Part shown: positions 160 through 25,373 of the stretch, piece after piece | How the letters are laid out: each line of letters begins with the position of its first letter | Position numbering within the stretch: position 1 is the first letter of the stretch | Assembly: GCA_964495505.1 (NCBI GenBank) | Contig: CAZBVM010000002.1 | Coordinates: 1-46,456, forward strand | From: an uncultured Candidatus Saccharibacteria bacterium | GTDB taxonomy: Bacteria > Patescibacteriota > Minisyncoccia > UBA10092 | DNA: 46,456 bases | Reading direction: 5' to 3' | Notes under the pieces: generated by a model | Told to the model about the DNA's origin: nothing | Database searches by the model: none | The model's input: only the letters and a program-made list of their open reading frames with translations | Program-made: the position numbers and the translations under genes

Positions 160-870
160 ATGAAAATCGTCGCGGTAATAGGCGCGCGGGGCGGCTCAAA
201 AAGCATACCGGACAAAAATATCAAACTTTTCAACGGCAAGCCTCTTATCGCCTGGGCTATTTTGAATGCCAAAAAAAGCCAATTATTAGACAGGGTGATA
301 GTTTCTACCGACAGCCCCAAGATTGCCAAAATTGCCAAAAAATACGGCGCCGAAGTTCCTTTTTTAAGACCGAAAGAGTTGGCCACGCCGACTATCGGAC
401 TGGAACCTGTTTTGAAGCACGCCTACAGCTGGCTTTTAGAAAATGAAGAATATAAAGCGGATGCCCTGCTTCTTTTACCCGTTACTAACCCTCTCCGCCA
501 ACCCTTCCACATTGATGAAGCAATAAAAATTTTTAAAAATAAAAAGGCCGATTCCGTCGTGTCGGTAAATGAAACGCCCGCAAATCATACGCCGTATTGG
601 ACTCTCGTTCAAACAGATGCCGGCGTATCGCTCTTTGGCGGCATAGACCTTAAAAATATCCTTACCCGCCGGCAGGATTTTCCTCAAAAATGCTATACCC
701 GAAATGATTTGGTATACGTTCTAAAACCAGAAAATCTTTACGAAGAAAAACCGAATCTTTACGGCAAAAAAGTTGAACTTTACCAAACGAGCACAATTTA
801 CGAGGCGGACATTAATACCCCCGAAGAATGGGCTTTAACGGAAAATAGATTCAGACAACTCAAGAAATAA
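160..870 (+). CDS. CMP-sugar (acylneuraminate/nonulosonate-type) cytidylyltransferase family protein
   Basis: ATG start, 236 aa. The N-terminus MKIVAVIGARGGSKSIPDKNI...GKPLIAW...VSTDS matches my recollection of the NeuA/CTP_transf_3 family. No HMM was run. Confidence 0.75.
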   Translation: MKIVAVIGARGGSKSIPDKNIKLFNGKPLIAWAILNAKKSQLLDRVIVSTDSPKIAKIAKKYGAEVPFLRPKELATPTIGLEPVLKHAYSWLLENEEYKADALLLLPVTNPLRQPFHIDEAIKIFKNKKADSVVSVNETPANHTPYWTLVQTDAGVSLFGGIDLKNILTRRQDFPQKCYTRNDLVYVLKPENLYEEKPNLYGKKVELYQTSTIYEADINTPEEWALTENRFRQLKK

Positions 871-934: not shown

Positions 935-964
935 TTGAGCTGATACTGGCACAGGAGGATGAAA

Positions 965-2524
965 ATGGGAACTTTGAAGAAAGCAAAAGTCGCATTGCTG
1001 ACTCCGAATCTTAAGGGCATTAAAGGAGGAGTTAATCGTATCCAGCCAAGCCTTGGAGTCGGTTATCTCGCGGCAGTGCTTCAAAGAGAAGGACATGAAG
1101 TTCATGTAAGGGACACCGCCCTTGAAAAATACGATAATCAGATTCTTATGGGTGATGGAAGGACAATTCTTATTGGTGAAACCGATACTGAAATCGCGAA
1201 CTATATAGAAAATATTAATCCCGATATTGTCGGAATTTCTGTGCTTTTTTCTAATCTTGCGGAACATGCGCACAGCATTGCCAGAATCGTGAAAGAAGTT
1301 AAACCAGACGCTTATGTAGTGGTGGGAGGAAATCATATTTCTAATGCCGCTAAAGATTATTGGTATGCGAGAGGTGCAGGAAGTAATGACTCTATTTTGG
1401 GGCAGACACTGCTTCGGGAGATGCAAGACCCAAACATTGATTTTGCGATGATCGGAGAGTGCGATTTCGAGTTTAATGATTTAGTTAACGCTTTGACAAA
1501 TCAACAAGACCTAGGGTCTGTTAAAAACTTAGTCTATAGAAGAAATGGGGATATAGGTTTTAATAATAAGCCCCTAAAACGAGACGACAAGAGATTTGAC
1601 ATTAGGGGCCTGCCGCATCCTGCGAGAGACCTTATGAAGATGGAAGCGTATTTTAAGATAGGCTCGTTTCACTCGACAAGATCCACTTCCGATAGAGTTT
1701 TAAACGTAATGGCGTCAAGAGGGTGCCCCGAGGTATGCACATTTTGCACCACTCCCGATATGTGGGGGATGGGCGTGCGCTGGAGAGATCCAAAAGACGT
1801 ATTCGATGAGATAAGAGATGGCATCAAAGCTTATAAAATAGAAGAACTGCAATTCGAGGACGACACTATAACCGCAAACAAAAACCATTTATATGAACTG
1901 TGTGATTTAATCGGCGCGCTCGGAATAAATTGGTGTACGCCCAATGGAACAAAAGTTAATTATCATATGAAAGAACAACCCGAAATGTACAGGCGCATGC
2001 GCGATGCGGGCTGCTACCAACTTACTCTTGCGTGTGAAACGGGAGTTCAGCGCGTTATGGACGAAATAATCCGAAAAAAACTCAATGTTGAACAGATTGG
2101 GCCGGCAATTGAAAATGCAAAGAATGCCGGGATGTTTGTTCATACGTTTTGGATTGCGGGTTACCCGGGAGAAACAAGAGAAGAAATGGAAAAAACTATA
2201 AGATTTGCCGCTAATACGGGAGCGGATAGTTTTTCTATTGCGATACTCTCTCCACTACCCGGAACGCCAATTTATAGGCATGTTGTTGAGGAAAATCTTT
2301 GGTGGCCTAACGTTAAAGGAATACAAGATATGACTTACAGAACTTCTTTAGTTAAAGTTGATGGTTTTAGAGGCCCGGAAGAATTTGAAGGATGGGTCGA
2401 AGACCACAATAGATATCTAAACCTTTTGCTTGAGCAAAAAAACCCCGCGCGCGCGCGAGCTTACAATAGCTTAAGCAGCGCGAGGAAATTGGATCCCGAA
2501 CAGAGATTCATGAAGCAAACATAA
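965..2524 (+). CDS. Cobalamin-binding (class B) radical SAM enzyme, a candidate C-methyltransferase
   Basis: The CxxxCxxC cluster motif CPEVCTFC is encoded at 1724-1747. The N-terminal ~150 aa is a Rossmann-like B12-binding-type domain (DIVGISVLF...VVVGGNHIS). AGGAGG lies 6 nt upstream of the ATG at 965, so 965 is preferred over the track start 959. Confidence 0.85.
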   Translation: MGTLKKAKVALLTPNLKGIKGGVNRIQPSLGVGYLAAVLQREGHEVHVRDTALEKYDNQILMGDGRTILIGETDTEIANYIENINPDIVGISVLFSNLAEHAHSIARIVKEVKPDAYVVVGGNHISNAAKDYWYARGAGSNDSILGQTLLREMQDPNIDFAMIGECDFEFNDLVNALTNQQDLGSVKNLVYRRNGDIGFNNKPLKRDDKRFDIRGLPHPARDLMKMEAYFKIGSFHSTRSTSDRVLNVMASRGCPEVCTFCTTPDMWGMGVRWRDPKDVFDEIRDGIKAYKIEELQFEDDTITANKNHLYELCDLIGALGINWCTPNGTKVNYHMKEQPEMYRRMRDAGCYQLTLACETGVQRVMDEIIRKKLNVEQIGPAIENAKNAGMFVHTFWIAGYPGETREEMEKTIRFAANTGADSFSIAILSPLPGTPIYRHVVEENLWWPNVKGIQDMTYRTSLVKVDGFRGPEEFEGWVEDHNRYLNLLLEQKNPARARAYNSLSSARKLDPEQRFMKQT

Positions 2525-3887
2525 AAGACAGGATAAAATTAACAATCCTTTCGCTTGATTTTCCGTCTGCTTTCCAAAGCTGTTGCAAAACAGCTTTTTT
2601 TCTTCCCTCGCGATCAATAGAGGGGTTATTAAGATATTCCTTAACGTAATCAATCAGCTGCTTCAAACTGACAGCTGATTTTACGGCTCCTGTTTTAAAA
2701 AATGCCCTCATATGATCTTCATCGTGAAATCGCCTGATACTTGACCAGTAGGACTTGGATTTAGGACAGTCAAAATTAATGACGATTTGCGGCTTATCAA
2801 ACATCAATGAATCCAAACATATCGAGGTCGCGATCCAAACAACAACGTCGGAATAATACAAGGTGTCTATAAGATGGCGATTATCCCGCATCGAAAATTC
2901 AAGAAATTTCCCGCTGTCTTTTATTACGCCGGGCATCTCAACAATAAAATCCTGATTGCTTTTAAACTTCTCTTTTAGCGTTATATCGGGATGAGTAGGA
3001 TGGTTTCTGATGAAAAACTGGATGTCTTTCGGTAAAATGCCGTTTTTTTTCGCAACTTTAAGGGTTCGGCAAATAGCAGTGTTGGTTTCGGACAGTTCCC
3101 GCCGTCCGGGTGAAAAGAAAATCGTCTTTTTCTCGGGATCTCCGCCTACTAATTTGAAAAATTCTTCCCGACTCTTAAAAGGCGCTTTCAAATAATCGTC
3201 AAATTGCGATAAGCCGCCGATAAAAATATCTTTTTCGGGATAATTATGCAACTCAACCGCTTCTTTTTTTATCACTTCGTTATTGACAATTAATTTGTCC
3301 GGAAAATGCCTCATGAGTCCCTTGCTGAAATTATTATCCCAAGACCGAACCATCCCGACGACAAAAACTTTTCTTATTTTTGCTTCTTTAATTAACGTTT
3401 GATCAAAATCGTCATAAACATCGGTTGAAAAAATAATATCGGGGTTATATTTTTCAAAATAATCTTTATAAAAATCGCGGGGCGAGAAATGCCAATCAAA
3501 AAACCTGAAAATCCTGTTTAAAACTTTGTGGCCGGATAAAAGCCACTCAACAGCCGTAAATACATGAAATTTCAAAAAATTGTAAAAACTCGGATGCTGG
3601 CTTAGATAATCGCGCCTTTTGCGGCGAATCCAATAGGTATAAATAAACAAAAAAGCAGCTTTTGAAAAAAAATTATTTGATCGGGAATTTGAAAATGGCG
3701 CCGGATCAATGCCCTCAATCGCCACATTGCCAGAACGGTAATTATTTTCAAAAAAATCTTTGATGGCAGCCGGCACTAAAAGGATAATTTTCAAATCTTC
3801 TCTTTTTTTCAAAATACCAAAAACATCCGTATTCAGGATATTTTTAGAAATGAAAGGATGGAAAGCTGTTATAAAAATTGTTTTCAT
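2508..3887 (-). CDS. GT-B-like transferase of the TagB/TagF (CDP-glycerol glycerophosphotransferase) / HP-motif type. It probably uses a cytidine-nucleotide-linked donor.
   Basis: 459 aa with an ATG start. KKTIFFSPGRRE resembles the TagF 'LYAPTxR' segment. IRNHPTHPD supplies an HP motif. YYSDVVVWIATSICLDSLMFDKPQIVINFD resembles the 'SDxlITDySS...KPii' C-terminal block. The ORF is solid but the function is tentative. Confidence 0.45.
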   Translation of the reverse strand: MKTIFITAFHPFISKNILNTDVFGILKKREDLKIILLVPAAIKDFFENNYRSGNVAIEGIDPAPFSNSRSNNFFSKAAFLFIYTYWIRRKRRDYLSQHPSFYNFLKFHVFTAVEWLLSGHKVLNRIFRFFDWHFSPRDFYKDYFEKYNPDIIFSTDVYDDFDQTLIKEAKIRKVFVVGMVRSWDNNFSKGLMRHFPDKLIVNNEVIKKEAVELHNYPEKDIFIGGLSQFDDYLKAPFKSREEFFKLVGGDPEKKTIFFSPGRRELSETNTAICRTLKVAKKNGILPKDIQFFIRNHPTHPDITLKEKFKSNQDFIVEMPGVIKDSGKFLEFSMRDNRHLIDTLYYSDVVVWIATSICLDSLMFDKPQIVINFDCPKSKSYWSSIRRFHDEDHMRAFFKTGAVKSAVSLKQLIDYVKEYLNNPSIDREGRKKAVLQQLWKADGKSSERIVNFILSFMFAS

Positions 3888-3908: not shown

Positions 3909-5801
3909 TTATTTTTGTTTAAATTTGTAAATCGAAAATTCCCCGGTATTTTTCAGAAAAATGAAATCGCGCGCGACTAGCGGCGGAACGCCACTTTTGC
4001 CTTTTTCAAAAACGGCGTAATCAATTCTGTAAGCCGGCTGCCACGAGAAATTAAGCGGCATATTTTTTAACTCTTGCTTTAAGGCAGCGCAGGCCGCGTC
4101 AAATTTAGCTTCCGGGATAACATATAGCCGGTTGTACCACAACGGGAAAAACGCCCGGACAATGGCTTTTTCAAAACCGGAAAAAAGAGCGCTTCTAAAT
4201 CCCCCGTTTCCCGCGGCGCCGGCGCAGTCAGACGCGGTCAAATCGGCGGATTCCGGATAAAACCGCGCGATATCCAGCCATCTTTTTTTAAATTCTACTT
4301 CGTCGCCGCCGCTAAATTTATACGCTCCGCCATCCCCCCAATATACCTTATGATTAGTATAAACAGTTATCACGTTGGCAAAACCCGGCGGCGCCAGCAC
4401 GACCCCCGGTTCCAAAGTCCTCAACGCCGTAATAAGCGGGCGATCGCGCTCGTCGGTCTTTGGAAAAGAAAAATCATGGCCGTGCAGGCGCCAGCTAAAC
4501 AGCGCCCCGAAAATCGCCGCAATTGCAATAAAAAAGATGGCAAATTTTTTAAGATATAAAGCCGGAACAGATGCGCCCCATAATCTCCATACCAAAAGCG
4601 CGTATCCGGTAACAAGCGGAACACTAATGCCAACGACAAGCCAACTCCGCCACGGTCTTCCATAAAACAAAGCAACAATATGCAGACCCAGAATAACAGA
4701 AAATATAACGGCAAGCGAGCGGAATTTAGATCGGTTCATCTCCGGCAACAGTTCAAAAAACGCGAATCCTAAAAGGATAATAGTGAAAAAATCTTCTAGA
4801 ATAAGATAATGGTCGGAAACAACGGCAAAACCCGTCACGATATTGCTGTTGATGGCTAAAAAGAGAGAGAAAAAAGAAATACCTAAAAAAAGCAATGTTT
4901 GGAACAAATGGGATTCGCCGGAGAATTTTTTAAATAAAACACGCGCCAAAGCGGCAAGCGCTAAAGCCGCGCCTAAAAGACGCAGTCCGGCTAACGGCAA
5001 AATCGGCAAACGGCCAAAACGGACGCCCATGCGTTCCAGCGACTCATGAACCGAATTAACCTGGCCGAGACCCGAAATATAGGCGTTATAAAAAACCACT
5101 ACATTGAGTATGGAAAACGCAACCCATAGTCCCAAGAGCGCCCAATAACGCCAATTTCGGTTAAAAACCGAAAACCATAGAAACCATAAGCCGCCAATCA
5201 GGACTCCTAAAGAAAAAGACACGGGATGGACGATAAAAAGAGTATTGGCAACGCCAATAATTATAACCTGATGCCAGAACTTTGAAAATTGCGGGGTTTT
5301 AAATAAAAGAATTATACCGACAATAAAAAATATCAAAAACCAGGAGGAAAGGCCGGGCTCAAGAAGCTGAAGCGGTCCGTAAAAGAAAACAAAAAACGCG
5401 GTAAGTCCAAGCGATTCCCATTGCTTCCGGCCGAAATTTTTAAATAAAAAGTATATTCCGATAAAAAGCGCGAACGCGCTTGCTCCTTTCAAAATAACAT
5501 GCCACCAGCCCATAGGAATCCGGCTTGCCTGCGGAATCAGGCGCATTATTGACTGAAAGAGAAGAAAACGCTCTTTTCCGCCCGAATGCTCCCAAAAATA
5601 CGGATTGTCGCTGAAGCGCTTTTGAAAAATATCGTTAAGCCAAACCAAATAAGGAGTATAAGCGCCTATATCGGTCCGCAGAGGTTCCTGAAAATTGCTT
5701 AAAAATGCCCAATAAAAAATATCCGGCAAAATAATGAGTAAAACAAAAAAAACTATAGCTATAATAAACCATATGCGGAAATTATTTGATGATTTTGACA
5801 T
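3909..5801 (-). CDS. Large polytopic membrane protein with a ~200-aa C-terminal extracytoplasmic domain (GT-C-like / unknown)
   Basis: 630 aa with more than 10 hydrophobic segments. The C-terminal domain is paralogous to that of 22292..24514: ITVYTNHKVYWG vs IPVYTANNVFYH, GGDEVEFKKRW vs SDDEVLDRF, YRIDYAVFEK vs YRVDYLVWDK. Confidence 0.6.
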   Translation of the reverse strand: MSKSSNNFRIWFIIAIVFFVLLIILPDIFYWAFLSNFQEPLRTDIGAYTPYLVWLNDIFQKRFSDNPYFWEHSGGKERFLLFQSIMRLIPQASRIPMGWWHVILKGASAFALFIGIYFLFKNFGRKQWESLGLTAFFVFFYGPLQLLEPGLSSWFLIFFIVGIILLFKTPQFSKFWHQVIIIGVANTLFIVHPVSFSLGVLIGGLWFLWFSVFNRNWRYWALLGLWVAFSILNVVVFYNAYISGLGQVNSVHESLERMGVRFGRLPILPLAGLRLLGAALALAALARVLFKKFSGESHLFQTLLFLGISFFSLFLAINSNIVTGFAVVSDHYLILEDFFTIILLGFAFFELLPEMNRSKFRSLAVIFSVILGLHIVALFYGRPWRSWLVVGISVPLVTGYALLVWRLWGASVPALYLKKFAIFFIAIAAIFGALFSWRLHGHDFSFPKTDERDRPLITALRTLEPGVVLAPPGFANVITVYTNHKVYWGDGGAYKFSGGDEVEFKKRWLDIARFYPESADLTASDCAGAAGNGGFRSALFSGFEKAIVRAFFPLWYNRLYVIPEAKFDAACAALKQELKNMPLNFSWQPAYRIDYAVFEKGKSGVPPLVARDFIFLKNTGEFSIYKFKQK

Positions 5802-6453
5802 ATACGAAATTGATTGATAGTACGCCCCATTCTTTTTTAAATCGGTCGCGAATGGGCAAAATTTTCACATCAAATTTGCTTCTGTCTATTTTTTCAATTA
5901 CCGATTTGGCGCCGACATCGTCTTTATTGAAATAATAATCGTCAAAAATGACAACGGAATTTTTGCGCATAAGCTCTTGAGCATAACGCCAATCATTGGT
6001 TATTGTCTCAATGCTGTGGCCGCCGTCTATAAATATAAAATCCATTTTTGGCAAAAAATAAACCACTTTGGGTAAAACTTTAAGCGTGTTGCCCTTAAAA
6101 AGGTTAACCTTAACACCTGTTTTTTCCAATTTTTTTCTAATTTCTTCCACGGACGGCGGCAGCTTTGAAACTTCCCTTTCAAGCATTTCATTTGTCATTT
6201 CTTCAAAAAGATCGAAACCGTAATAAGTTATTTCACTGGCCGGATAAAAATTTTTTGCCTCATTTATCATTTCTTCCGCCCGCCTTCCATTCCATGTCCC
6301 TATTTCCATAATATTTTTCGGTCGTATCTTTCTTATCGTTTCAAAAAGATAATAGTATCTTTTTGTTTCTTTGAAAAAATACTGATACCTTTTGGGAATA
6401 AAAACCGACGCAATCTTTTTAATTTTCTTATATAGATTCTTAGGATGTTCCAT
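5782..6453 (-). CDS. Class I SAM-dependent methyltransferase (Methyltransf_24 / O-methyltransferase-like)
   Basis: 223 aa. Motif I is IMEIGTWNGRRAEEM. IFIDGGHSIETITNDW is typical of this subfamily. Confidence 0.7.
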   Translation of the reverse strand: MEHPKNLYKKIKKIASVFIPKRYQYFFKETKRYYYLFETIRKIRPKNIMEIGTWNGRRAEEMINEAKNFYPASEITYYGFDLFEEMTNEMLEREVSKLPPSVEEIRKKLEKTGVKVNLFKGNTLKVLPKVVYFLPKMDFIFIDGGHSIETITNDWRYAQELMRKNSVVIFDDYYFNKDDVGAKSVIEKIDRSKFDVKILPIRDRFKKEWGVLSINFVYVKIIK

Positions 6454-6469: not shown

Positions 6470-7786
6470 TTAATTTTTAGTTGCTATTTTAATGGCGCGC
6501 CAAAATTTACGCTTTAACCAAAAAGATAAAAATTTCCTTGTCAATTTTTCGTGTTCAAAAGAATATTTAAAAACATTATTTCCGAAAAGAAACCCTTTTC
6601 CGTTAGCGCCCGCGACTTGTTTCTTATTATAAATTTCCGTAATTTCATTTATCATTTTTATTTTTTCCTGAAAAACTCTCGGTCTAAAAACCGGCACTTC
6701 ATCCAAATTGCTAAAAGTGTCTTTTTTTAAATTATCGCTTAAGAGGCCTTTTACAGAAACAAAACCCATGAACATAGCGGCTGCTTCATACGGCATAAAA
6801 AAGACAAAAGAATCAACCGTTTTAGAACGCTGACCCAATTTTATTTCAAATTTTTGATAAGAATTAATTGACAATTCCAAGGCCTGAAGCGGAGTGTTTA
6901 CAAAATCGGTAAAAATTTGCCCGTCCCCGAAAGTATTAAGATAAATATTTTTCGCTTTTTTATCTAAAGAAGAGTGATTTAAAAAATTTGTTTTTCTTAT
7001 TCCCAACTCCTCAATGCGTTCTAACTGAGAATACTGACGGGCCCAGTCGCCTAAAGAAAAGGCAATCTCAAAAACCATAAGCAGGCCTTCATAAAACAAT
7101 TTTATTAACTTTCGGACAGCTTGCTCTCGGTCAATCTTAAACCAATTTGACATCAAATCTTTAATATTTTCGGAAAAAGCGGGGCTAATTTTTCTGTTCG
7201 TGATATTATTAATTTCCCGAGTGATATAGATGATAGTTTTAAGCTCCTCTAAAACATGCCTTACGGGCAATTCTTTATTAATATAAAAGGGGAGAGTTGA
7301 AATCATTAACGCTAAAAATCTCTCGGCGTTGGTTAAACTCAAAATATCTTGTTCGTTTTTATCAAATTTTATATTTTCAAAATTTACGTCTTTTTCAATA
7401 TCCGAATTTTTATACAACAATCTGTGGCCATTGGGCCATACATTCATTGTCCAGGGATCAAAATAAAGCATTTTGCGGTAATGTTTTTCCGTAATAAGCG
7501 TGATGTGATGGCTCATTAGGTATTTGGTCTTCTCGGAAAGTTCTGGTTTTAGGGGAAGGTACATTTTTTCCGCGTCATCGCAAAATACCGCCCAAATATC
7601 CATATCCGATATGCCCGGGTACGGAATATACCCGTATTCGAGCAGGGCAACAAGCCCCGGAGTATTGCGAGCCTGATTAATTATCTCGACTCGCGCCTCG
7701 TCGTAATCGGCTTCGCCGCATTCAATAGGCAGATCATAAACGCGCCAGCCGTCTATTTCCATTACCTCTTGATTTTTAAAATTCAT
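6470..7786 (-). CDS. Uncharacterised 438-aa protein, with a possible N-terminal nucleotidyltransferase-fold segment
   Basis: Its ATG overlaps the upstream stop as ATGA (7783-7786). LLEYGYIPYPGISDMDIWAVF weakly resembles the pol-beta NTase G[SG]...D.D motif. The rest is unrecognised. Confidence 0.3.
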   Translation of the reverse strand: MNFKNQEVMEIDGWRVYDLPIECGEADYDEARVEIINQARNTPGLVALLEYGYIPYPGISDMDIWAVFCDDAEKMYLPLKPELSEKTKYLMSHHITLITEKHYRKMLYFDPWTMNVWPNGHRLLYKNSDIEKDVNFENIKFDKNEQDILSLTNAERFLALMISTLPFYINKELPVRHVLEELKTIIYITREINNITNRKISPAFSENIKDLMSNWFKIDREQAVRKLIKLFYEGLLMVFEIAFSLGDWARQYSQLERIEELGIRKTNFLNHSSLDKKAKNIYLNTFGDGQIFTDFVNTPLQALELSINSYQKFEIKLGQRSKTVDSFVFFMPYEAAAMFMGFVSVKGLLSDNLKKDTFSNLDEVPVFRPRVFQEKIKMINEITEIYNKKQVAGANGKGFLFGNNVFKYSFEHEKLTRKFLSFWLKRKFWRAIKIATKN

Positions 7787-9993
7787 AATATTGACATTAA
7801 TATTTTCCGAAGATCTTTCATGGCTATTTTTTTTGGATTATTTTGCATACGCTCAACGTTGACGCTTTTTACCGCTAAATCAATATCGCTTTGACGAACC
7901 CCAAATTTACGAAGCCTGGTTTCAAGGCCGATTTGTTCCATAAGGCCGGTAATTTTCCGTGATGCCGCTACCGCATTTGTGACTCCTAAAAGATGCGCCA
8001 ATTCAGTCATTGCCCGCTTATTGACATTGCTATTATAAACAAAAAACTTTCCTAAAGTTAGAGCAACGGCATGGCCGTGCGGGATGTTGAAATTGGAAGT
8101 AAAAAAATAAGATATCGCGTGAGGCGCGGTGGTTTTGGTGATATTAATGGCCTTGCCGGCCAAATGCGAGGCCAAAGCCATTGCCGAACGCGACTTTAAT
8201 GTCGGTTTTTTGACTGAATGAACTAAATTGCCCGATATCAACCGGATGGCTCTTTTGGCAAAGCGCTTGGAAACATCGGTGGCGTTAACGCACCAATACG
8301 ATTCTATCGCCTGCGACAGGGCGTCCATTCCAGACGACGCCGCAAGACGGGTCGGCATATTCATAGTTAATGCCGGTTCGATTATCGCGGCGGCCGGCAG
8401 TATAGATTTGTGGGCCACGGAATATTTTTTTTCTCCGGCATAAACAACGGCAAAATGAGTCGCTTCGCTTCCCGAGCCGGCCGTGGTGGGCACGGCAATA
8501 AGCGGTTTGCCGGAATTTTTTATAATTCTTTTAGAAGTAATATATTCAATCGGCCGACCGCTTTGAACCGAAAAAATATTAATAAGCTTCGCCATATCAA
8601 TAACACTGCCGCCGCCAATTGCCGCGACGACATCGTATTTTTTCTTTTTAAAAATACTTATTCCCCACTCCACGTCTTCCAATTTTGGATTGGAACTGAA
8701 GTCGCTGAATTTTGTAACTTCATAAAATGATAAAATTTTACGAAACAGCCGTTCCGCGCCCGACGCAATGTACGACTTTCCTCCGGTAACCAGAAATATT
8801 CTTCTAACTTTATTCTTTTCAAAAAAAATTTTTAATTTTTTCGCCGCCAAAAAAGTCCGTGAGCCCCTATTTATAAAATCCATAAACAAATTTTTATTTT
8901 CTTTGGGACTTAAAGTCGGGCGGCTAAGATTATCCCGCGAACCTTTCTTTACCGCCACTTCAAGCAGCGCCGGGCCCGGCATTTTTTTAAAATCGGCAAG
9001 AATATCTCTTAATTTTCCGGCTTTTGAAACTCTAAATACATTTTTATAACCGCAATCGCGCGCTACTTTTGGAATATCCATTGAGAAAGCGGCTGTCGGC
9101 TGGCCGCCTACCGACTCGTACGCGTAATTATTTAAAACTATATGCTTGAAATTTTTAGGCGCCATGTTGCCGATGATTGCAAGCGCGCCCATATGCATAA
9201 TCAAAGCGCCATCGCCGTCAAGGCAGTACACCTGGCTTTCCGGCTTGGCCAACGCCACGCCCAAAGCAATTTGAGAGGAATGCCCCATCGAGCCAACAGT
9301 CAAAAAGTCCTTTTCATGACCGAGGCCGGAATTTTCCCGTACTTCGAAAAGCTCGCGCGAGGTTTTGCCGGTCGTTGACACAAAAATTTCATCGTCCCGC
9401 AATTCGTCTGTGATAATTTCTATGGCCTCTTCCCGCGAAAGCGGCAAATTCAACGGTTGAACCGGATTCTTAAACACATACGGCGCGAAGGTGTTGCTTC
9501 TCACAACAAGCGCGTACGGAGCGCTGGACGTATTCAGATAATCAATAGCTCTACTTATGGCCTTTTTCACGCCGCCCAGAGACCTCGGCAATATTTCAAA
9601 GGAAATACCCAGTGCCGTCAAAATCCCGAGCGTTATTTTTCCTTGCTTAACATGTTGGGGTTCGTCATCAACACCGGGTTCGCCTCTCCAACCTATCAGT
9701 AAAATCATTGGAATGCCGTAAACTTCCGGATCGGCCAGTGAAACCAAAGGATTAATAGCGTTGCCCTCCCCGGAATTTTGCATATAAACCAGGCCGATTT
9801 TTCCGGTAGCCAGATGGTAGCCAGCCGCTAAAGCGACGGCGCCGCCTTCATTGGCGGCAATAATGTGAGAACTCGGTTTCGCGTTGTTGATTATATAATC
9901 GGAAAAGTCTTTTAACAGCGAATCGGGAACGCCAGAAAAAAAGCCAATCCCATTTTTAACCAGCAGGTCATAAAATGTTTTTGGCGAAATCAT
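7783..9993 (-). CDS. Fusion protein: phosphonopyruvate decarboxylase (N-terminal, ThDP-dependent) plus iron-containing alcohol dehydrogenase (C-terminal, phosphonoacetaldehyde reductase-like)
   Basis: The start is set at the ATG 9993, which forms an ATGA overlap with the pepM stop. The protein then begins [30 protein letters not shown], the canonical Ppd N-terminus. [10 protein letters not shown] is a ThDP motif. The C-terminal half (about 7783-8850) has FLVTGGKSY...[13 protein letters not shown]...HGHAVA, typical of Fe-ADH. Confidence 0.85.
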
Positions 9994-11321
9994 AAATTCA
10001 AATCTAGCAGTTCCTTTACCGGCATGCAAAATTTCTCCGATTCCAGACATCTTTGATTTTCCAAGATAGATTTTGCCGTTTTTTCCATGGCTGGATAGGA
10101 GCTTCTCAAAAGATGATTGGCGTAAATTACCATCCGCACTCCGCTTTTAACCAGCTCTTCTTCGGTGATAGAGTTGTAGGTTGTCGGCACGGCTACTAGA
10201 GGGGCCTTGCTCACAAATTTTTGATAATTTTTGCAAAAATCTAAAATTTCCGACGGGTCTTTTTCTTTACTGTGAATCATGATGCCGTCGGCTCCGGCGC
10301 TTATATAGGCCTTGGCTCTCGCCAAAGCGTCTTTGAGTCCCTTTTGGAGTATCAAACTTTCAATCCTCGCAACAATCATAAAGTCATCCGTCACTTGCGC
10401 TCTCTTTCCCGCCGATATTTTCGCGCAAAAATTTAGAGTACTATCCTGGTCTTGGGCGACATCGGTTCCATATAATGAATTGCGTTTTAATCCGGTCTTG
10501 TCCTCAATAATAATGCCGGAAACGCCGAGACGCTCTAGGGTTTTCACTGTGGATTCAAAATGTTCTATCGGACCGCCGTTGTCGCCATCCATTATGAGCG
10601 GCTTAGTGGTGACATCAAAGACCTCATTTATGGTATTAAGGCGGGAAGTAAAATCAACAATCCCGGTGTCGGGCTTGCCCTTCGCTACGGAATCGGTCAA
10701 GCTGCTAAGCCACATTCCGTCGAATTCTTGAATTTTGCCATCCTTGGCAATTTTTGTTTTCTCTACAATTTTACCGGTAAGTCCGTTATGGACTTCTAAA
10801 ATCCTGACCAGTGGTTTGGTATTAAGCGCTCGTCTAATCATTCGCATTCGTTTTTCCGGAGTAGTCCCAACGCGGGTTATCGCCTCTATGAGTTTGGTAG
10901 AAGACACGCCGGGGGTATATTTTGGTTCAACAAGTTTGCCCCCCCATTCTTTAAGGGTTTGAATTACCCGTTCTCTAACTTCCTTCTGGACTCCGGTTTT
11001 CCAATCATCGCCATGCACTACATAGTCGGGTTTAAGCCGGCGCAAATTCGGCACATAATCAAGGGTTGTCTGCGGTATAATAGCGCTGACACCTTTAATA
11101 TTTTCAATGACGATTTTGCGTTGTTCATAAGTCAAAAATGGAACCCGTTTGTAGCTTGCTATTGCTTCATCCGTAACAAGACCAATCACAACTTGTCCCA
11201 GTTTTTGGGCTTTACTTATAATATTAAGATGGCCCGGATGCAATAAATCAGCAGCCATTGCCACGTAAACAATTCTTTTTTTATTTAATTTCTTCTCCAT
11301 CTTGCTTATGCTACTTTCCAT
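9990..11321 (-). CDS. pepM: Bifunctional cytidylyltransferase / phosphoenolpyruvate mutase (Fom1-like architecture)
   Basis: The PepM signature [10 protein letters not shown] (EDKx5NS) is encoded at 10476-10505. The N-terminal ~130 aa has the HxGH cytidylyltransferase motif ([10 protein letters not shown], about 11229-11240) and DYVVHGDDW. The track start 11339 is TTG. The ATGs at 11321 and 11300 are the alternatives, so the start is uncertain. Confidence 0.9.
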
Positions 11322-11359: not shown

Positions 11360-12391
11360 TTACCGCTCATAAACTTTTAGGTATTTTAAGACGACCTTGC
11401 TCCAATCATGGTCTTTTGCCCATTTTAAAGAATTAGAAGAAAACTCGTTTCTTATTTCTTTATCCCTGATAATTCTAACAATCGCCGACGCGGTTGCCTC
11501 GACATCATTTTGCGAAACAAGAAGCCCATTATAACCGTTTTTTACCGCATCTTCAATGCCATTGCCAAAAGTTCCTATAACCGGCAAGCCCGCGGCCGCC
11601 GCCTCAAGAAATACAAGACCAAAACCCTCAAAATGGTGATTTTCATTGACCGAGGTTAAAATAAATAATTTAGCGCGCCGGTAAAAATCAGAAAGTTCCC
11701 CGTCGCTTAATTCGCTCAAAAATTCAATGTCTTTTAGAACTCCGTATCGCGCGGCCAAATTTTTTAATTCGTTAAAATAAGCTGTATCTTTCTGATTGCC
11801 GATTATCTTATATTTCAAATTCAGAATTTCTTTTTTCGTCTGCGCAAAAGCCGGAATGGAAATATGATAACCTTTGCGATATTTCAGAGCGCCGACGCTT
11901 AAAATGAAATCCTCCTGCGAATCAAGGCGCGTTCTATAAAATTTTTCAAAATTGATGCCGTGATTGATAACTTCAATATCTTTTCTACTGGATTTTTTTA
12001 AAAATTCTTCTTTAGTATAACGGCTTATAGAAATAATCTTATCGGCTTTTTTATAAGCCCATTTGACGAGCGTCCCTATAGCAAAATTATAAAGAGGCGC
12101 AATCGCGTAAGTGCCCTGAACCGTTACCACCAATTTTTTATTTATCCCAAAGTTGGCAAGCGCGGCAACGACAGCATAAGGATAACCATCGATGGCGTGA
12201 ATAATATCGCAATTTTTTAAATGCTTTCTGATTTTTACGGCATCTAAAATCAAACCGCCGAACCATTTGTTTTTTTGTTCAAAAACAACAACTTCATAGC
12301 CGGCATTTTTAACCGCCGCGATTAAATCTTCGGCATACCTTCCTCCGCCATGCCGCGGATTTATATTATCGACTATGTAGTATACCCTCAT
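11360..12391 (-). CDS. GT4-family (GT-B) glycosyltransferase
   Basis: 343 aa. The E-x7-E region is [20 protein letters not shown]. Confidence 0.85.
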
Positions 12392-13739
12392 TTAATTTAA
12401 ATATTGCCGCGAGGCCTACAACTGCCAATAAAATATAAAACGGGTAAATCGGCAGGGCGTAGCGCGGAATAGCGTGAATAGCGCTATAAGCCAAATTAAA
12501 ATATAAAACAATCAAAATAAGCCATCCCGACGCCGCCCAATTTCTCGCGATTTTAACAGCTCCGCATATCGCCAAAAAAAGAAATAGAAACCAGATGCCG
12601 CGGATTCCGATAATAATGCCTGTTTTTTTCCAATCGGGAATTTCCGGATGCCGGCCCTCGGCAAACATCGGATGAATTTCAAGCGTATTCCGCCATTGGT
12701 TATCCCGGGGAAGAATCGGACTATTGAAGCTGATAAAGTCCAAAAGCGATATGGCAATATATTTGTGGGGCTCTTTTAATATGGTTTTAAGCGCTCCGGC
12801 AGTTAACTGTTGGTCAATTTCAATATCATTTTTCCCGGATTTAACGAGTTCATTAACGGTTTTGTCGGTGACGACTACATTTCGGTAATCATCATAACTC
12901 GCTTTAATCCCAAGTTTTTCAGAAAAATAATACCCGAATAGTCGGCCGATAAAATGGCCGGCGTAATCCGAATAGAACCTTTCCATCCGCTCTACGCGCG
13001 AAGCCAGGCCTCCGCCAATCCGAGGGGCAATAGTAATTTCACCGTAACGGTTATATAGATACCAAGGCGATAAGGCGGCAAGAAAAGCGAGCAAAAGAAT
13101 GGCGGCTTTTAAAGTTCCTTTTTTAAATAGAGCCCGCTGATAATAAATAAACAAGACATTAAGAGCGGCCAATACAATGAAAAATTGCACAATGCTTTTT
13201 GTCATAGCCGAGAGCGCCAGAAAAATGCCCGCGGAGAAAAGCCATAAATTACTATTTTTTAAAGATGCCTGATAAAAAGTAAAAACGGAAACGATAAGCA
13301 AAAAAGTGAAAAGAATTTCGGTCGCAGCATTCCCCGCTTCTATGGCCAAACCGGGAAAGAGAGCGACGGCTATGGTCGACCAAAAAGCCAGATTATTTTT
13401 TATTAATCCGCGTTTATCCGCGACTAATCCGCATAAATCAGCGATTAAGTAAATGAAAACAACCAAAAAAGCAAAAAGGAAAATCTGGATTATTCTCACC
13501 GTATCGTAATTATGGCCGAAAACTTTATAAATACCCGCCAAAAATAGCGGGTAGAATGGCTCAACGCCGGCATCGCGTCCATAATAAGTAAATCCACTCC
13601 CGCCTAAAATATTCTGAGCAACTTGGTCATAAAAACTCTGATCTGATGTTGCCGGCTGGCCGAATATTTTTTGATTCCAAAAAAATCCCGACGCCAAGGC
13701 AATCAGAAATATAAAAATAATTATTTTTTTATTACTCAT
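12366..13739 (-). CDS. GT-C fold glycosyltransferase, ArnT/PMT (GT39/GT83)-like
   Basis: 457 aa and polytopic. The first-loop motif is DQSFYDQVAQNILGG (DxxxY...A type). Confidence 0.7.
   Translation of the reverse strand: MSNKKIIIFIFLIALASGFFWNQKIFGQPATSDQSFYDQVAQNILGGSGFTYYGRDAGVEPFYPLFLAGIYKVFGHNYDTVRIIQIFLFAFLVVFIYLIADLCGLVADKRGLIKNNLAFWSTIAVALFPGLAIEAGNAATEILFTFLLIVSVFTFYQASLKNSNLWLFSAGIFLALSAMTKSIVQFFIVLAALNVLFIYYQRALFKKGTLKAAILLLAFLAALSPWYLYNRYGEITIAPRIGGGLASRVERMERFYSDYAGHFIGRLFGYYFSEKLGIKASYDDYRNVVVTDKTVNELVKSGKNDIEIDQQLTAGALKTILKEPHKYIAISLLDFISFNSPILPRDNQWRNTLEIHPMFAEGRHPEIPDWKKTGIIIGIRGIWFLFLFLAICGAVKIARNWAASGWLILIVLYFNLAYSAIHAIPRYALPIYPFYILLAVVGLAAIFKLNEGILHSR
13408..13443. repeat. 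Solo array of ATCCGC-type ~10-11-nt units, the same family as the flanks of the GxxExxY module. It is in frame inside the GT-C gene.
   Basis: CCGCGTTTATCCGCGACTAATCCGCATAAATCAGCG closely matches the reverse complement of 23481-23515. It is translated as ADLCGLVADKRG. Confidence 0.7.
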
Positions 13740-17435: not shown

Positions 17436-18557
17436 TTAATGTACAACGTCTAATAACCTGAAAATGTATTCAAATCTTTTTTCCCAAGTATGGTCTCGCA
17501 ATGCTCTTTTCCTGCCCTTTGCGGCGATGGATTCCCGCTCTGCGTCATGGCTAAGATAATATTTGATTTTTTCCAGTAAATCTTCATTATTTTTATAAAG
17601 CACAATTTCTTTGCCATCATCAAAGCATTCTTTTATCCGGTCGTTTTTTGCCGTAATATACATAGAACCACAAAGAGTGGCTTCAAAGTCCCGGCAAGTC
17701 GCGAAAAATCTTCCGCCTCCCCACGAATCGTTGATTCCGAGCACAATTTTACTTCTTGAAAATATCTCAACCATTTTATCAACCGACACCGGGCCGCTGG
17801 GCCAGCCGATGCCGTATACTTCAATATTTATTCCGTTGTCTTTCAAAAACTTTACGACTGACCGTCTTTTCCCGTAATTTCTGCCGACAAAACAAACATT
17901 AATGTCTTTTTTAAGGTTAAGCGGTTTATGAACATTACTATTCCCCGCTTCCGGCAAATAAAGTGGCCTGCCGCCTTCATACAAGTATTTTTCGCAGGAC
18001 GGCTTGTAGCTTACTGCGGTAAGCGTTATATATTTACAAATATCTCTGCTGCCGGACCACCCCGTCGACGTAGGGTAGCCGACAAATTTAATATGGTCGT
18101 CAAATGAAAAATTAACGACGGGTATTTTTAATTTACCCATATCTTTAAACATTTCCGGTAAAAAAATCAAGCCGGAAGCAATGGTAAAAATAAGATTTAT
18201 TTTGCCGCTATCAAAAAGTTTTTTTACATCTTCCGCGAATTGCTTATTAAATTTCCGCTTTTTAAAAATCTGCCACCACAAAGAGTACGGTTTTACATCC
18301 TGCATCGGGTATTCAATAACTTCGCCGAAATGCCTGAGCGCCGGCAGAAGATTATAATCTTCCCAATCGCTGTGTTTATAGACCTTAAGAATTTTTAGCG
18401 GACCGTTCGGCTTTTTGTAATCAAATAGTTTCAGTTTTTCTTTAACCAATTCTTCGGAATATTTTTCTTTGGCCGCGCGCGCATAATAAGCGTCTTCCCT
18501 GTCGGCTTTTTTAATTATGTAAAAATCAAATAATTTTTTAAGAAATCTTTTAAGCAT
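17436..18557 (-). CDS. CgeB-family / DUF3880-like putative glycosyltransferase
   Basis: 373 aa. CFVGRNYGKRRSVVKFL...YGIGW and the C-terminal RALRDHTWEKRFEYIF resemble CgeB-type proteins from memory. Confidence 0.45.
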   Translation of the reverse strand: MLKRFLKKLFDFYIIKKADREDAYYARAAKEKYSEELVKEKLKLFDYKKPNGPLKILKVYKHSDWEDYNLLPALRHFGEVIEYPMQDVKPYSLWWQIFKKRKFNKQFAEDVKKLFDSGKINLIFTIASGLIFLPEMFKDMGKLKIPVVNFSFDDHIKFVGYPTSTGWSGSRDICKYITLTAVSYKPSCEKYLYEGGRPLYLPEAGNSNVHKPLNLKKDINVCFVGRNYGKRRSVVKFLKDNGINIEVYGIGWPSGPVSVDKMVEIFSRSKIVLGINDSWGGGRFFATCRDFEATLCGSMYITAKNDRIKECFDDGKEIVLYKNNEDLLEKIKYYLSHDAERESIAAKGRKRALRDHTWEKRFEYIFRLLDVVH

Positions 18558-19482
18558 TGGTATTTTGGGTAAAGTTTGGTCTTAATTTAAAAAATGAATA
18601 AGACCCCAGAATTAAAAGCCATAACAAATCGAAAAACCGCATAATAACGGACGCGACAACGCCTATATTAGCATCACCCATCATAATGTAGGTAAGTCCA
18701 CCCAAAAACGCTTCCCGCACTATCAAATTTCCCGGAGTTAGAGCGACAATGAAAGAAAATCCGGTTAAAATCGCCAGCATTAAAACAATATAAAAATTGA
18801 TTGAATAATTTAAAACGCTAAAAATCACCGAAAGCCGCAACGCCATAATAAATAAAACAATCGCCGCCACGATAATCAAATAACTTGTATGGCGTCCGGA
18901 ATTTAAAATATCCTTGCGGCTTTGAAACAAATACTCCAGATATTTTAAATATTTATGTTTATCCTTAATTGACTCCGGCAAAAATAAATATAAGGCAATC
19001 AAAACTAAAACCGCCAAAATGAAAAATATAAAATAAACCGGATTTATCGCTTCAAAGACCCGCGAGAAGTCAAAAAAAATAATCAGCCAAGCGCCAACCA
19101 AAAAATAAACAAAAAAATTCGTTAAATAAACCAGAATGGAGCCGGCAATATATTTATTAACCGGAAAATTATGTTTTATTTTCAGGTATGCCCCTTCCGC
19201 GATAATCCCGGCTTTAAGCGGCAAATAATTAAATAAACTGAAATATTGCGAAATGTAAAATGCCTCGCGGAAAGAAATTATTTTCTTGAAAACCGCCAAA
19301 GATAATTTCAAAGCTGCGGCATTTTGCAAAAGAGCGATGATGCTTAAAACCGAGAGCAGAAAAAAATTCCATAAAGAAATTGAGGTCATTTTTTGAATAT
19401 CAAAATCCGCATACTTAAAAATATATAATAATAAAAATACGAACAACGCGTAGCTCAAAATAATTTTAAGATTATTTTTCAT
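18550..19482 (-). CDS. Polytopic membrane protein, UPF0104 / lysyl-PG-synthase-TM (flippase-like) family
   Basis: 310 aa with about 8 TM segments. TPGNLIVREAFLGG resembles the family motif. Confidence 0.5.
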   Translation of the reverse strand: MKNNLKIILSYALFVFLLLYIFKYADFDIQKMTSISLWNFFLLSVLSIIALLQNAAALKLSLAVFKKIISFREAFYISQYFSLFNYLPLKAGIIAEGAYLKIKHNFPVNKYIAGSILVYLTNFFVYFLVGAWLIIFFDFSRVFEAINPVYFIFFILAVLVLIALYLFLPESIKDKHKYLKYLEYLFQSRKDILNSGRHTSYLIIVAAIVLFIMALRLSVIFSVLNYSINFYIVLMLAILTGFSFIVALTPGNLIVREAFLGGLTYIMMGDANIGVVASVIMRFFDLLWLLILGSYSFFKLRPNFTQNTNA

Positions 19483-24514: not shown

Positions 24515-24515
24515 G

Positions 24516-25373
24516 TTATGATTTTTTGGCAATTATGAAAAAATCATCGCGAAAATCAACCGGCAAGCTTATACTTCCCAAGCGTGTCCCCGCCAATAAA
24601 TCCGCCGCCCATCGCCAAATAAAAATATTCTGCCATCTGGCCAACATATTAAATAAATATTGCAAAGCAAATTTTTTCCTGATTTTGCCCGCATAAACTA
24701 CCTCAAAACCAATTTTGGAAAGCAAAAAGCAAAGATTGTTTTGGTTGAAATAAATGACATGTTCGGGCGGAATAAACTTGTACCAGCGTTTCCCTAAAAT
24801 TTTCGCGGCAAAACTGCCGGTATCTATGGTATTGATAGCAACCACTCCCCCCGGTTTAAGTATTTTATAAATCACTCTAAAATCAAAATCCGGATTTATC
24901 AGATGCTCTAAAACATCCCATAAAGTTACCGCATCAAAAAATTCCGGTTTAAAATCGGATTTTTCAAGCGTGCCGGTGACGACCTTCAACCCTCTTCTCC
25001 TGGCAATTTCCGCGGCATATTCCGAAATTTCAATTCCGCTTCCTTCAAAACCCGCCTTTTCTGCCAATTGCAAAAAATATCCGGTCGCCGCGCCAATATC
25101 CAATAATTTATTGCCACTGGAAAAATCCTTGATTTTTTCCAGATAAGTAACAAGCGTTTTGGACATTGCCAATTTATCATCGTCATAGTTGACATAACCA
25201 AAACCTTTTTTAGCGCCGAAAAAATAATCGGCAGAATATATTTCGGAGAAATTTTCCGGTAATGGAAAAATAAAAACCAAACCGCATTTTTTGCAGCGCC
25301 AAAGATCAAAATTATTTTTTTTCGTAAAAAAATCCGCGGTCTGGCTGTTACAAACAATGCAGAATTGATTCAT
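24516..25373 (-). CDS. Class I SAM-dependent methyltransferase with an N-terminal Cys4 zinc-ribbon
   Basis: CIVCNS...CKKCG, then motif I LLDIGAATGYFL, then LWDVLEHLINP. Confidence 0.8.
   Translation of the reverse strand: MNQFCIVCNSQTADFFTKKNNFDLWRCKKCGLVFIFPLPENFSEIYSADYFFGAKKGFGYVNYDDDKLAMSKTLVTYLEKIKDFSSGNKLLDIGAATGYFLQLAEKAGFEGSGIEISEYAAEIARRRGLKVVTGTLEKSDFKPEFFDAVTLWDVLEHLINPDFDFRVIYKILKPGGVVAINTIDTGSFAAKILGKRWYKFIPPEHVIYFNQNNLCFLLSKIGFEVVYAGKIRKKFALQYLFNMLARWQNIFIWRWAADLLAGTRLGSISLPVDFRDDFFIIAKKS

Follow-up and report, generated by a model that had tools for sequence, protein, structure and literature searches.

A 46,456-nucleotide stretch of contig CAZBVM010000002.1, from the uncultured Candidatus Saccharibacteria bacterium of assembly GCA_964495505.1 and here called the window in its full length, carries two overlapping genes that we read, with a probability of a little under 0.8, as a compact cassette for cytidine monophosphate-activated 2-hydroxyethylphosphonate (CMP-HEP; 2-HEP or HEP when not activated), most likely the donor for decoration of a surface glycan or polymer. 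One gene encodes a Fom1-type cytidylyltransferase (CyTase) joined to a phosphoenolpyruvate (PEP) mutase, PepM, and the other a phosphonopyruvate decarboxylase, Ppd, fused to an alcohol dehydrogenase (ADH) of the FomC/PhpC type (Table 1). The domain identities of the two proteins, their relationships to Fom1, Fom2 and FomC of Streptomyces wedmorensis fosfomycin biosynthesis, the synteny of the locus and the absence of enzymes of competing branches carry this reading. The chemistry is already known, the window being one more copy of the known Fom1-type HEP/CMP-HEP surface-tailoring cassette, and the locus brings no new reaction to the making of HEP or CMP-HEP. Cell-surface phosphonates are thought to represent about half of microbial phosphonate pathways, HEP-polysaccharide esters are notable in marine dissolved organic phosphorus, and the steps beyond nucleotide activation remain uncharacterised (PMC6697681; PMC8942020; PMC9381506). 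The residual interest of the locus lies in its candidate transferases and in a radical S-adenosylmethionine (SAM) enzyme family related to Fom3: its compact, translationally coupled gene string offers two transferase candidates, a TagF-like enzyme and an orphan protein of nucleotidyltransferase (NTase) fold, and places the HEP pathway in ultra-small bacteria of the candidate phyla radiation (CPR), where surface chemistry probably matters for host attachment.

The first of the two proteins is close to its namesake along its whole length. Full-length Fom1, taken from the S. wedmorensis fom cluster that a genome scan with the Fom1 CyTase fragment retrieved (locus L009; such handles are used below where loci must be told apart), shares 60% identity with it over 430 aa (BLASTP, which was used for these identities). 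Pfam places CTP_transf_like (PF01467) at aa 25-146 of the 443-aa chain (E 1.1e-14) and PEP_mutase (PF13714) at aa 165-420 (E 1.7e-54), the solved CyTase of S. wedmorensis Fom1 (5X3D) matches aa 15-149 with an E value of 1.2e-59, and 1COZ (E 7e-10) and TIGR01518 place this domain in the TagD family. Both motifs on which the original prediction relied are in place, the LLHPGH of an HxGH-type cytidylyltransferase (HPGH here) at 11229-11246, ahead of the mutase, and the PEP-mutase signature EDKxxxxxNS as the 10-residue stretch at 10476-10505 (aa 273-282 of 443). The prediction would have fallen had the mutase part sided with isocitrate or methylisocitrate lyases or with carboxy-PEP mutase. It passes the PEP mutase equivalog model TIGR02320 of NCBIfam at 393 bits (cut-off 319.55) and stays far below the cut-offs of the sister models for phosphonopyruvate hydrolase (137.5 bits against 374), methylisocitrate lyase (94 against 354) and carboxy-PEP mutase (44.7 against 420). 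In the alignment with Mytilus PepM 1M1B (E 1e-44), D58, D85, D87, E114, K120, N122, S123, R159 and H190, which we take to be the catalytic and Mg-binding residues of PepM, are all kept. Judged by sequence, the protein is a Fom1-type cytidylyltransferase plus PEP mutase, and its CyTase domain is predicted to act as a CTP:2-HEP cytidylyltransferase. ATG 11321 and the upstream TTG 11339 are equally compatible as its start.

The stop of this gene overlaps the start of the next in an ATGA at 9990-9993, as foreseen, and the second protein, which begins with the 30-residue stretch read as a decarboxylase N-terminus, has the two-part build attributed to it, with TPP_enzyme_N (E 8e-15) and TPP_enzyme_C (E 2e-19) matched by Pfam in the same 736-aa chain as Fe-ADH (PF00465, E 8e-36) and ADH_Fe_C (PF25137, E 2e-37). 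The decarboxylase half, 49% identical to Fom2, scores 478.4 bits on the Ppd equivalog TIGR03297 (cut-off 312.5) and fails both models of ComD/ComE-type sulfopyruvate decarboxylase, the rival family that had to be considered (alpha, 74 bits against 148; beta, 134.5 against 221.5); its thiamine diphosphate (ThDP) motif, GDG-x25-NN, spans 9127-9216 and opens with the 10-residue stretch at 9187-9216. The ADH half, with the 10-residue Fe-ADH stretch at 8587-8616, is 37% identical to FomC. An alignment of this domain with FomC and 13 other ADHs of Fom1-type loci reveals one common set of metal ligands, D557-x3-Q561, H625 and H639/H641, with a glutamine in place of the first metal-binding histidine of group III ADHs as a signature of the clade, while His625 and His639/641 are kept. 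The best solved relative (6JKO/6JKP) is a sulfoacetaldehyde reductase, a Zn-dependent enzyme with Asp/Gln/His/His ligands (6JKP; PMC13576164), and the identical ligand set is in keeping with reduction of a C2 aldehyde that is small and anionic. We class the protein on these comparisons as a phosphonopyruvate decarboxylase fused to a FomC/PhpC-type, metal-dependent phosphonoacetaldehyde reductase. PhpC-type enzymes can also act in HEP degradation (PMC13576164), and the domain might on that ground be a catabolic HEP dehydrogenase in genes that are not biosynthetic; given its covalent fusion to Ppd, in a gene that overlaps that of PepM, and the lack of PhnX, PhnY/PhnA or transporter genes nearby, such a role is barely credible.

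The fusion itself is not an assembly artefact, since its four Pfam domains recur together in every one of the best 120 clusters listed for it (clustered at 90% identity), with 42-81% identity and a coverage of about 100%. The matches listed were found in Parcubacteria, Falkowbacteria, Gastranaerophilales, Woesearchaeota and unclassified bacteria, under a source name that reads merely "phosphonopyruvate decarboxylase". The genome scan with the Fom1 CyTase matched at least 396 species-level genomes, from which 80 loci were compared, and 45 kept loci, from many phyla, spanned at least 15 kb; across the 80, the fusion occurs only in one Falkowbacteria and one gammaproteobacterial genome, Ppd and ADH being separate genes elsewhere. 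A literature search found no paper describing a Ppd-ADH fusion and no relevant paper on PepM or phosphonates in CPR/Patescibacteria, and as far as we found, the fusion is real, common in sequence databases and apparently undescribed in papers. Two side observations concern its other forms. In Candidatus Falkowbacteria (L002, JAZDOE010000018.1, 8630-12259), CyTase, PepM, Ppd and Fe-ADH form a single uninterrupted open reading frame (ORF) of about 1,200 aa, with neither a stop nor a methionine at the PepM/Ppd junction, although the stored gene call covers just the 752-aa C-terminal part; all four activities would there share one polypeptide, which would make domain fusion a trend in small-genome lineages. 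In Woesearchaeota of the DPANN archaea (L003-L005), a CyTase-PepM gene and a fused Ppd-ADH gene meet in the same overlapping junction, the fusion protein being 44% identical to that of the window, and genes for an NTP_transferase protein of 551 aa and for a flippase come next; the shared pair suggests that ultra-small bacteria and archaea have exchanged the cassette.

The four domains would together form a short route from central metabolism to an activated head group. The PepM domain would isomerise PEP to phosphonopyruvate, the Ppd domain would decarboxylate this in a ThDP-dependent step to phosphonoacetaldehyde, pulling the unfavourable PepM equilibrium forward, the ADH domain would use NAD(P)H to reduce the aldehyde, giving 2-HEP, and the CyTase domain would turn HEP and CTP into CMP-HEP and pyrophosphate. 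This sequence of four activities in two polypeptides was the core of the original prediction, and the domain identities and the relationships to the Fom proteins support it. No AEP (2-aminoethylphosphonate)-transaminase-like ORF was found by Pfam among the scanned ORFs of the window, and BLASTP with all ORFs of the S. wedmorensis fom cluster against the window ORFs returned homologues of Fom1, Fom2, FomC and Fom3 only, with none for Fom4 (HppE), FomD, FomA or FomB, in keeping with the predicted lack of the transaminase and of HppE. HEPD and MpnS were not searched for directly, and no unassigned soluble ORF of their size is left in the window. Since homologues of Fom1, Fom2, FomC and Fom3 occur here without those of Fom4 and FomD, the CMP-phosphonate is probably consumed as a donor and not hydrolysed.

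The same four homologues invite another reading, for fosfomycin biosynthesis in Streptomyces starts with the enzymes Fom1, Fom2, FomC and Fom3, and the cassette could feed a diffusible phosphonate, be it fosfomycin-like, phosphinothricin-like, methylphosphonate or an AEP derivative. We consider this very unlikely: besides the missing Fom4/HppE, FomD, FomA, FomB and AEP transaminase, the window has no nonribosomal peptide synthetase, ATP-grasp or resistance genes, and all neighbours are glycan machinery. The earlier proposal of surface decoration in place of an antibiotic is in this respect upheld; the group transferred may be other than plain HEP in view of the Fom3-related gene taken up below.

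The cassette is of an ordinary kind. Ppd accompanies the Fom1-type protein in all 45 loci of at least 15 kb, a full-length Fe-ADH in 38 and an AEP transaminase in none, and these counts mark the CyTase-PepM/Ppd/Fe-ADH triad as a widespread, conserved HEP to CMP-HEP cassette. In a survey of PepM proteins, 59.5% were fused to another domain and 23.6% of the total to PF01467, with Fom1, which makes CMP-HEP, as the exemplar (Rice et al., 2019; PMC6697681), and 8.5% of PepM neighbourhoods were of HEP type (Li and Horsman, 2022; PMC8942020). An HEP conjugate has been purified from Stackebrandtia exopolysaccharide (PMC8942020), and actinomycetes have yielded HEP-exopolysaccharides (Yu, 2014, via PMC8942020 and PMC13576164).

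In the step that follows activation, CMP-HEP would serve as donor, with CMP leaving and the hydroxyethylphosphonyl group forming an ester with a hydroxyl that belongs to a surface glycan or to a polymer like teichoic acid, a transfer that would fall to the TagF-like enzyme, by analogy with CDP (cytidine diphosphate)-glycerol, and/or to the coupled NTase-fold protein. Enzymes of the TagF family take CDP-alcohols as donors, pass the phospho-alcohol on to a hydroxyl and release CMP. CMP-HEP would be a close structural analogue of such donors, and the TagF-like protein, in which Glyphos_transf (PF04464) matches aa 196-453 at 39.9 bits (cut-off 22.1), is by this analogy its likeliest user and the prime candidate for the phosphonyl transferase. 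Its gene keeps company with the cassette in the closest relatives. A Parcubacteria metagenome-assembled genome (MAG) whose Ppd-ADH is 81% identical to that of the window (L001) has the cassette with a 441-aa protein of no known family (66%), a TagF-like protein (72%) and a CTP_transf_3 protein (53%), the last in the position of 160-870 in the window, and an Azambacteria MAG (L090) has the cassette with a 440-aa counterpart (70%), a methyltransferase (71%), a TagF-like protein (60%) and again CTP_transf_3. Glyphos_transf genes lie within 8 kb of a Fom1-type PepM in 16 further loci, including those of Glycomyces and Stackebrandtia, and clustering of neighbours, for which stop-to-stop ORFs of the Fom1-type loci were used, found LicD-like genes in 12 loci and ABC-transporter ATPases in 15, with both TagF-like and LicD-like genes in the loci of Glycomyces and Stackebrandtia, the genera whose HEP-glycans have been isolated. 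This recurrence argues for a common scheme in which CMP-HEP is paired with a transferase of TagF or LicD type, with the protein at 2508-3887 as prime candidate here. The largest neighbour clusters of no known family, such as a "454-aa" family from 22 loci, were discarded as shadow ORFs, which arise in high-GC genomes in an alternative frame or in antisense.

Several points weigh against a CMP-HEP cassette that serves a surface glycan. The ADH domain has only the 37% identity to FomC given above and reaches just 199.6 bits on TIGR03405 (Phn_Fe-ADH/PsrA; cut-off 423.7), the only phosphonate-ADH equivalog available; this model represents an ADH subgroup other than the PhpC/FomC type, and PhpC-type enzymes are themselves highly divergent, with an average identity of 39% (PMC13576164). 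The TagF-like match is modest, and a sequence search of the PDB gave that protein no relative of solved structure. The Fom3-related gene nearby means that the transferred group may be other than plain HEP. Finally, the cassettes of the related clusters L002 and L098 have a CDP-alcohol phosphatidyltransferase as their neighbour instead, and some related cassettes may make lipids. The activated phosphonate of the window might become the head group of a membrane phosphonolipid and not a glycan substituent, as would suit the phosphatidyltransferase genes that follow the related cassettes L002, L098 and L006 and the LPG_synthase_TM-type membrane protein encoded at 18550-19482 of the window. We think this unlikely, since no CDP-OH_P_transf domain was found among the scanned window ORFs of at least 120 aa and the cassette is flanked by GT4, GT-C and TagF-like genes in an arrangement that its closest relatives keep.

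The second transferase candidate, the 438-aa orphan, is tied to the cassette by another ATGA overlap, at 7783-7786, which couples its gene to that of Ppd-ADH, and members of its family directly follow the ADH in L001 and L090. The protein has no Pfam or NCBIfam match (Pfam even at E values up to 5). Its family comprises only 42 database clusters, none with a Pfam domain and every named one from CPR, and keeps G52, D61 and D63 among its invariant residues. According to profile searches it represents CPR within a larger superfamily of NTase fold that lacks annotation and numbers at least 845 clusters (at 50% identity), mostly of 350-430 aa. One remote member of the superfamily has a weak Polbeta match, and, as a side observation, fusion to a methyltransferase or radical-SAM/SPASM domain is seen occasionally. 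An AlphaFold2 model (pLDDT 90.8, pTM 0.89) predicts a Pol-beta-like nucleotidyltransferase fold with a helical domain and a C-terminal beta-rich domain, and Foldseek relates the model weakly to ANT(9), ANT(4'), HalB and Tam41 (E about 1e-2, probability 0.9) and to giant-virus Pol-beta NTases (E 2e-3, probability 1.0, also weak). A LicD/fukutin identity, prompted by an invariant GxSDxD-like stretch, was rejected, there being no Pfam match and only 0.3% probability in hhalign against the LicD-like proteins of actinobacterial HEP clusters; what the model supports is the general Pol-beta NTase fold alone. In locus L089, which has no PepM close by, a family member stands beside a 254-aa NTP_transferase and an MFS transporter. 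The family therefore seems to have a general role with nucleotide-activated head groups, and the 438-aa protein is, going by its predicted fold, a candidate head-group (phosphonyl) transferase or second nucleotidyltransferase. L089 (JGI 3300077522) is also a CPR glycan locus in which the 435-aa NTase-fold member is surrounded, inside 20 kb, by B12 radical-SAM genes of four different kinds.

The boldest reading of these two candidates would be a new wall polymer with carbon-phosphorus (C-P) bonds in CPR, in which CMP-HEP, or its methylated form CMP-2-hydroxypropylphosphonate (CMP-2-HPP), is used by the TagF-like protein and/or the orphan and the hydroxyl of each phosphonate is the next acceptor, giving a poly(hydroxyalkylphosphonate) akin to teichoic acid, or at the least a glycan decorated with 2-HPP. 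We regard it as improbable; if true, it would make the 438-aa protein the founding member of a new phosphonyl transferase family.

The methylated form comes into consideration through the gene at 959-2524. Its product contains B12-binding (PF02310) and Radical_SAM (PF04055) domains in Pfam and the motif CPEVCTFC (CxxxCxxC), and is 32% identical to Fom3 over 508 aa (BLASTP, E 2e-73). The best NCBIfam model for both proteins is the Sden_1168 P-methyltransferase, with 222 bits for the window protein and 300 for Fom3, both below the cut-off of 575, and a PDB sequence search returned no Fom3 structure. The protein belongs to a family of hundreds of clusters at 52-65% identity, from marine TARA and other metagenomes, Nitrospinota, Omnitrophota and Nanoarchaeota, outside which it matches Fom3 proteins best of all the B12 radical-SAM proteins fetched; of the radical-SAM proteins seen, this family is also the one nearest to Fom3. 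A metagenome scan with the window protein gave 6 mostly short loci, too little for statistics on co-occurrence. Members of the family (55-61% identity) lie in PepM/Ppd clusters in four of five other contexts (L006, L007, L008 and L098; not L097): next to Ppd, an AEP transaminase and CDP-OH_P_transf in L006; with CyTase-PepM, Ppd, an aminotransferase, a CyTase, adenylylsulfate (APS) kinase and PhyH in L007; 9 kb from PepM in L008; and in L098 in a row of PepM, radical SAM, Ppd and Fe-ADH. The family is thus seen in HEP- and AEP-type clusters, often with PhyH, APS-kinase or Methyltransf_24/TylF genes, and an uncharacterised radical-SAM gene and an adenylylsulfate kinase gene beside ppm-ppd have been described in Campylobacter (Li and Horsman, 2022; PMC8942020).

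By its sequence the 959-2524 protein is a candidate C-methyltransferase acting on a CMP-phosphonate, and CMP-HEP might first be methylated by it in Fom3-like fashion, so that the surface group would be 2-hydroxypropylphosphonate instead of HEP. The full-length identity to Fom3, the next-best matches and shared NCBIfam model, the recurrence of the family in PepM/Ppd clusters (with its place between PepM and Ppd/Fe-ADH in L098) and the set of Fom1, Fom2, FomC and Fom3 homologues without FomD and Fom4 speak for such a step. The gene, however, is not on the strand of the cassette, from which it is 5.3 kb away, and it forms a pair with the gene for a PseF-like cytidylyltransferase; the same position holds an unrelated B12 radical SAM in L001 and none in L090; the family occurs within 10 kb in 0 of 80 Fom1-type genome loci outside Streptomyces; several members sit in AEP-type clusters; and 32% identity leaves the regiochemistry unfixed. 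We keep the methylated variant as a tentative possibility beside the preferred one, decoration with plain HEP. Whatever its reaction, the gene draws attention to a large Fom3-related radical-SAM family sited in phosphonate clusters of many phyla. The B12 radical SAM of L001 (16880-18403, next to the TagF-like gene) was tried as an orthologue and rejected at 21-23% identity and 46 bits on the Sden_1168 model; it belongs to another radical-SAM family in the same slot, convergent with the TagF-like gene and downstream of CTP_transf_3, a non-orthologous replacement.

The genes around the cassette (Table 1) form a co-directional string from 13739 down to 2508, in which successive genes are at most 38 nt apart or overlap, in the order GT-C, GT4, CyTase-PepM, Ppd-ADH, NTase-fold protein, methyltransferase, membrane protein and TagF-like transferase, within a glycan island of about 45 kb. 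The glycan setting described by the original prediction therefore stands, but its list of neighbours was incomplete, having overlooked the B12 radical-SAM, TagF-like and coupled NTase-fold genes.

Table 1. Positions of the proposed CMP-HEP cassette and adjoining genes in the window.
Feature	Position	Strand	Details
Fom1-type CyTase-PepM	9990-11321	-	443 aa; CyTase ~aa 15-149 (10875-11279), PEP mutase ~aa 154-441 (9999-10862)
Ppd-ADH fusion	7783-9993	-	736 aa; Ppd aa 1-374 (8872-9993), FomC/PhpC-type ADH aa 384-736 (7783-8844)
NTase-fold orphan	6470-7786	-	438 aa; no Pfam or NCBIfam match
Class I SAM methyltransferase (Methyltransf_24)	5782-6453	-	223 aa; Pfam PF13578, E 4.7e-12
Polytopic membrane protein with C-terminal soluble domain	3909-5801	-	630 aa; no Pfam or NCBIfam match
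TagF-like CDP-alcohol-type phosphotransferase	2508-3887	-	459 aa; Pfam Glyphos_transf PF04464
B12-binding radical-SAM enzyme, Fom3/Sden_1168 clade	959-2524	+	521 aa; convergent with TagF-like gene
CTP_transf_3 cytidylyltransferase, PseF/KdsB-like	160-870	+	236 aa; upstream of radical-SAM gene; PF02348, E 4.8e-22
GT4 glycosyltransferase	11360-12391	-	Pfam; same co-directional string
PMT_2-type GT-C membrane glycosyltransferase	12366-13739	-	Pfam; heads co-directional string

Within the string, the methyltransferase may be an O-methylase of the phosphonate or of the glycan, and its gene is overlapped by 20 nt by that of the 630-aa membrane protein, which has no homologue in the fetched loci either. 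The CTP_transf_3 protein scores 150 bits on the PseF model, under the cut-off of 205.7, and its link to the phosphonate module is uncertain. Scans of the window for promoters and terminators gave counts near shuffle expectation, the only suggestive sites being terminator-like hairpins past the convergent 3' ends, at 2444-2459 (-) and 2576-2597 (+). The rest of the window encodes GT2, GT4 and GT-C glycosyltransferases, sugar-nucleotide enzymes, methyltransferases and a Wzy_C ligase (Pfam). Two ORFs apart from the cassette deserve mention: in a 746-aa polytopic membrane ORF at 22292-24532 (-), transmembrane segments lie on either side of a complete nuclease-like domain, PD-(D/E)XK_3 at aa 204-315, which keeps the reading frame and may be an in-frame mobile insertion, and a GT4 gene at 40660-41826 (+) is divided into an N-terminal and a C-terminal half (40660-41346 and 41350-41826) by a single in-frame TAA at 41344-41346, which may reflect a pseudogene, a sequencing error or read-through.

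Set beside known systems, the window shares with S. wedmorensis fosfomycin biosynthesis the architecture of Fom1, clear relatives of Fom2 and FomC, the latter with the same metal site, and a Fom3-related radical-SAM protein (60%, 49%, 37% and 32% identity, respectively), yet it joins Ppd and ADH in one polypeptide, lacks the Fom4 epoxidase, the FomD CMP-HPP hydrolase and the FomA/B resistance kinases, and lies in a context of glycan assembly in a CPR bacterium. The wall teichoic acid system of CDP-glycerol (TagD with TagF/TagB) resembles it in that the CyTase of the window is of the TagD family and a Glyphos_transf gene ends the string, whereas the group transferred here would carry a C-P bond and the TagF-like protein is very divergent. 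With the Pnt pathway of PntC/LicC type (Rice et al., 2019; PMC6697681) it has in common a PepM-fused nucleotidyltransferase that supplies a CMP conjugate for cell-surface tailoring, but PntC is a PF12804 protein that acts on AEP, whereas the domain of the window is of PF01467 (Fom1/TagD-like) and a reductase replaces the AEP transaminase. The HEP-phosphonoglycan clusters of Glycomyces and Stackebrandtia (L015 and L021) differ in having Ppd and ADH as separate genes and LicD-like genes in addition, while the window has no LicD and instead a CPR-specific NTase-fold protein; they share with it Fom1-type CyTase-PepM, Ppd, Fe-ADH and TagF-like genes within 8 kb, and their product, an HEP ester on a polysaccharide (Yu et al., 2014, via PMC8942020 and PMC13576164), is of the very class predicted for the window.

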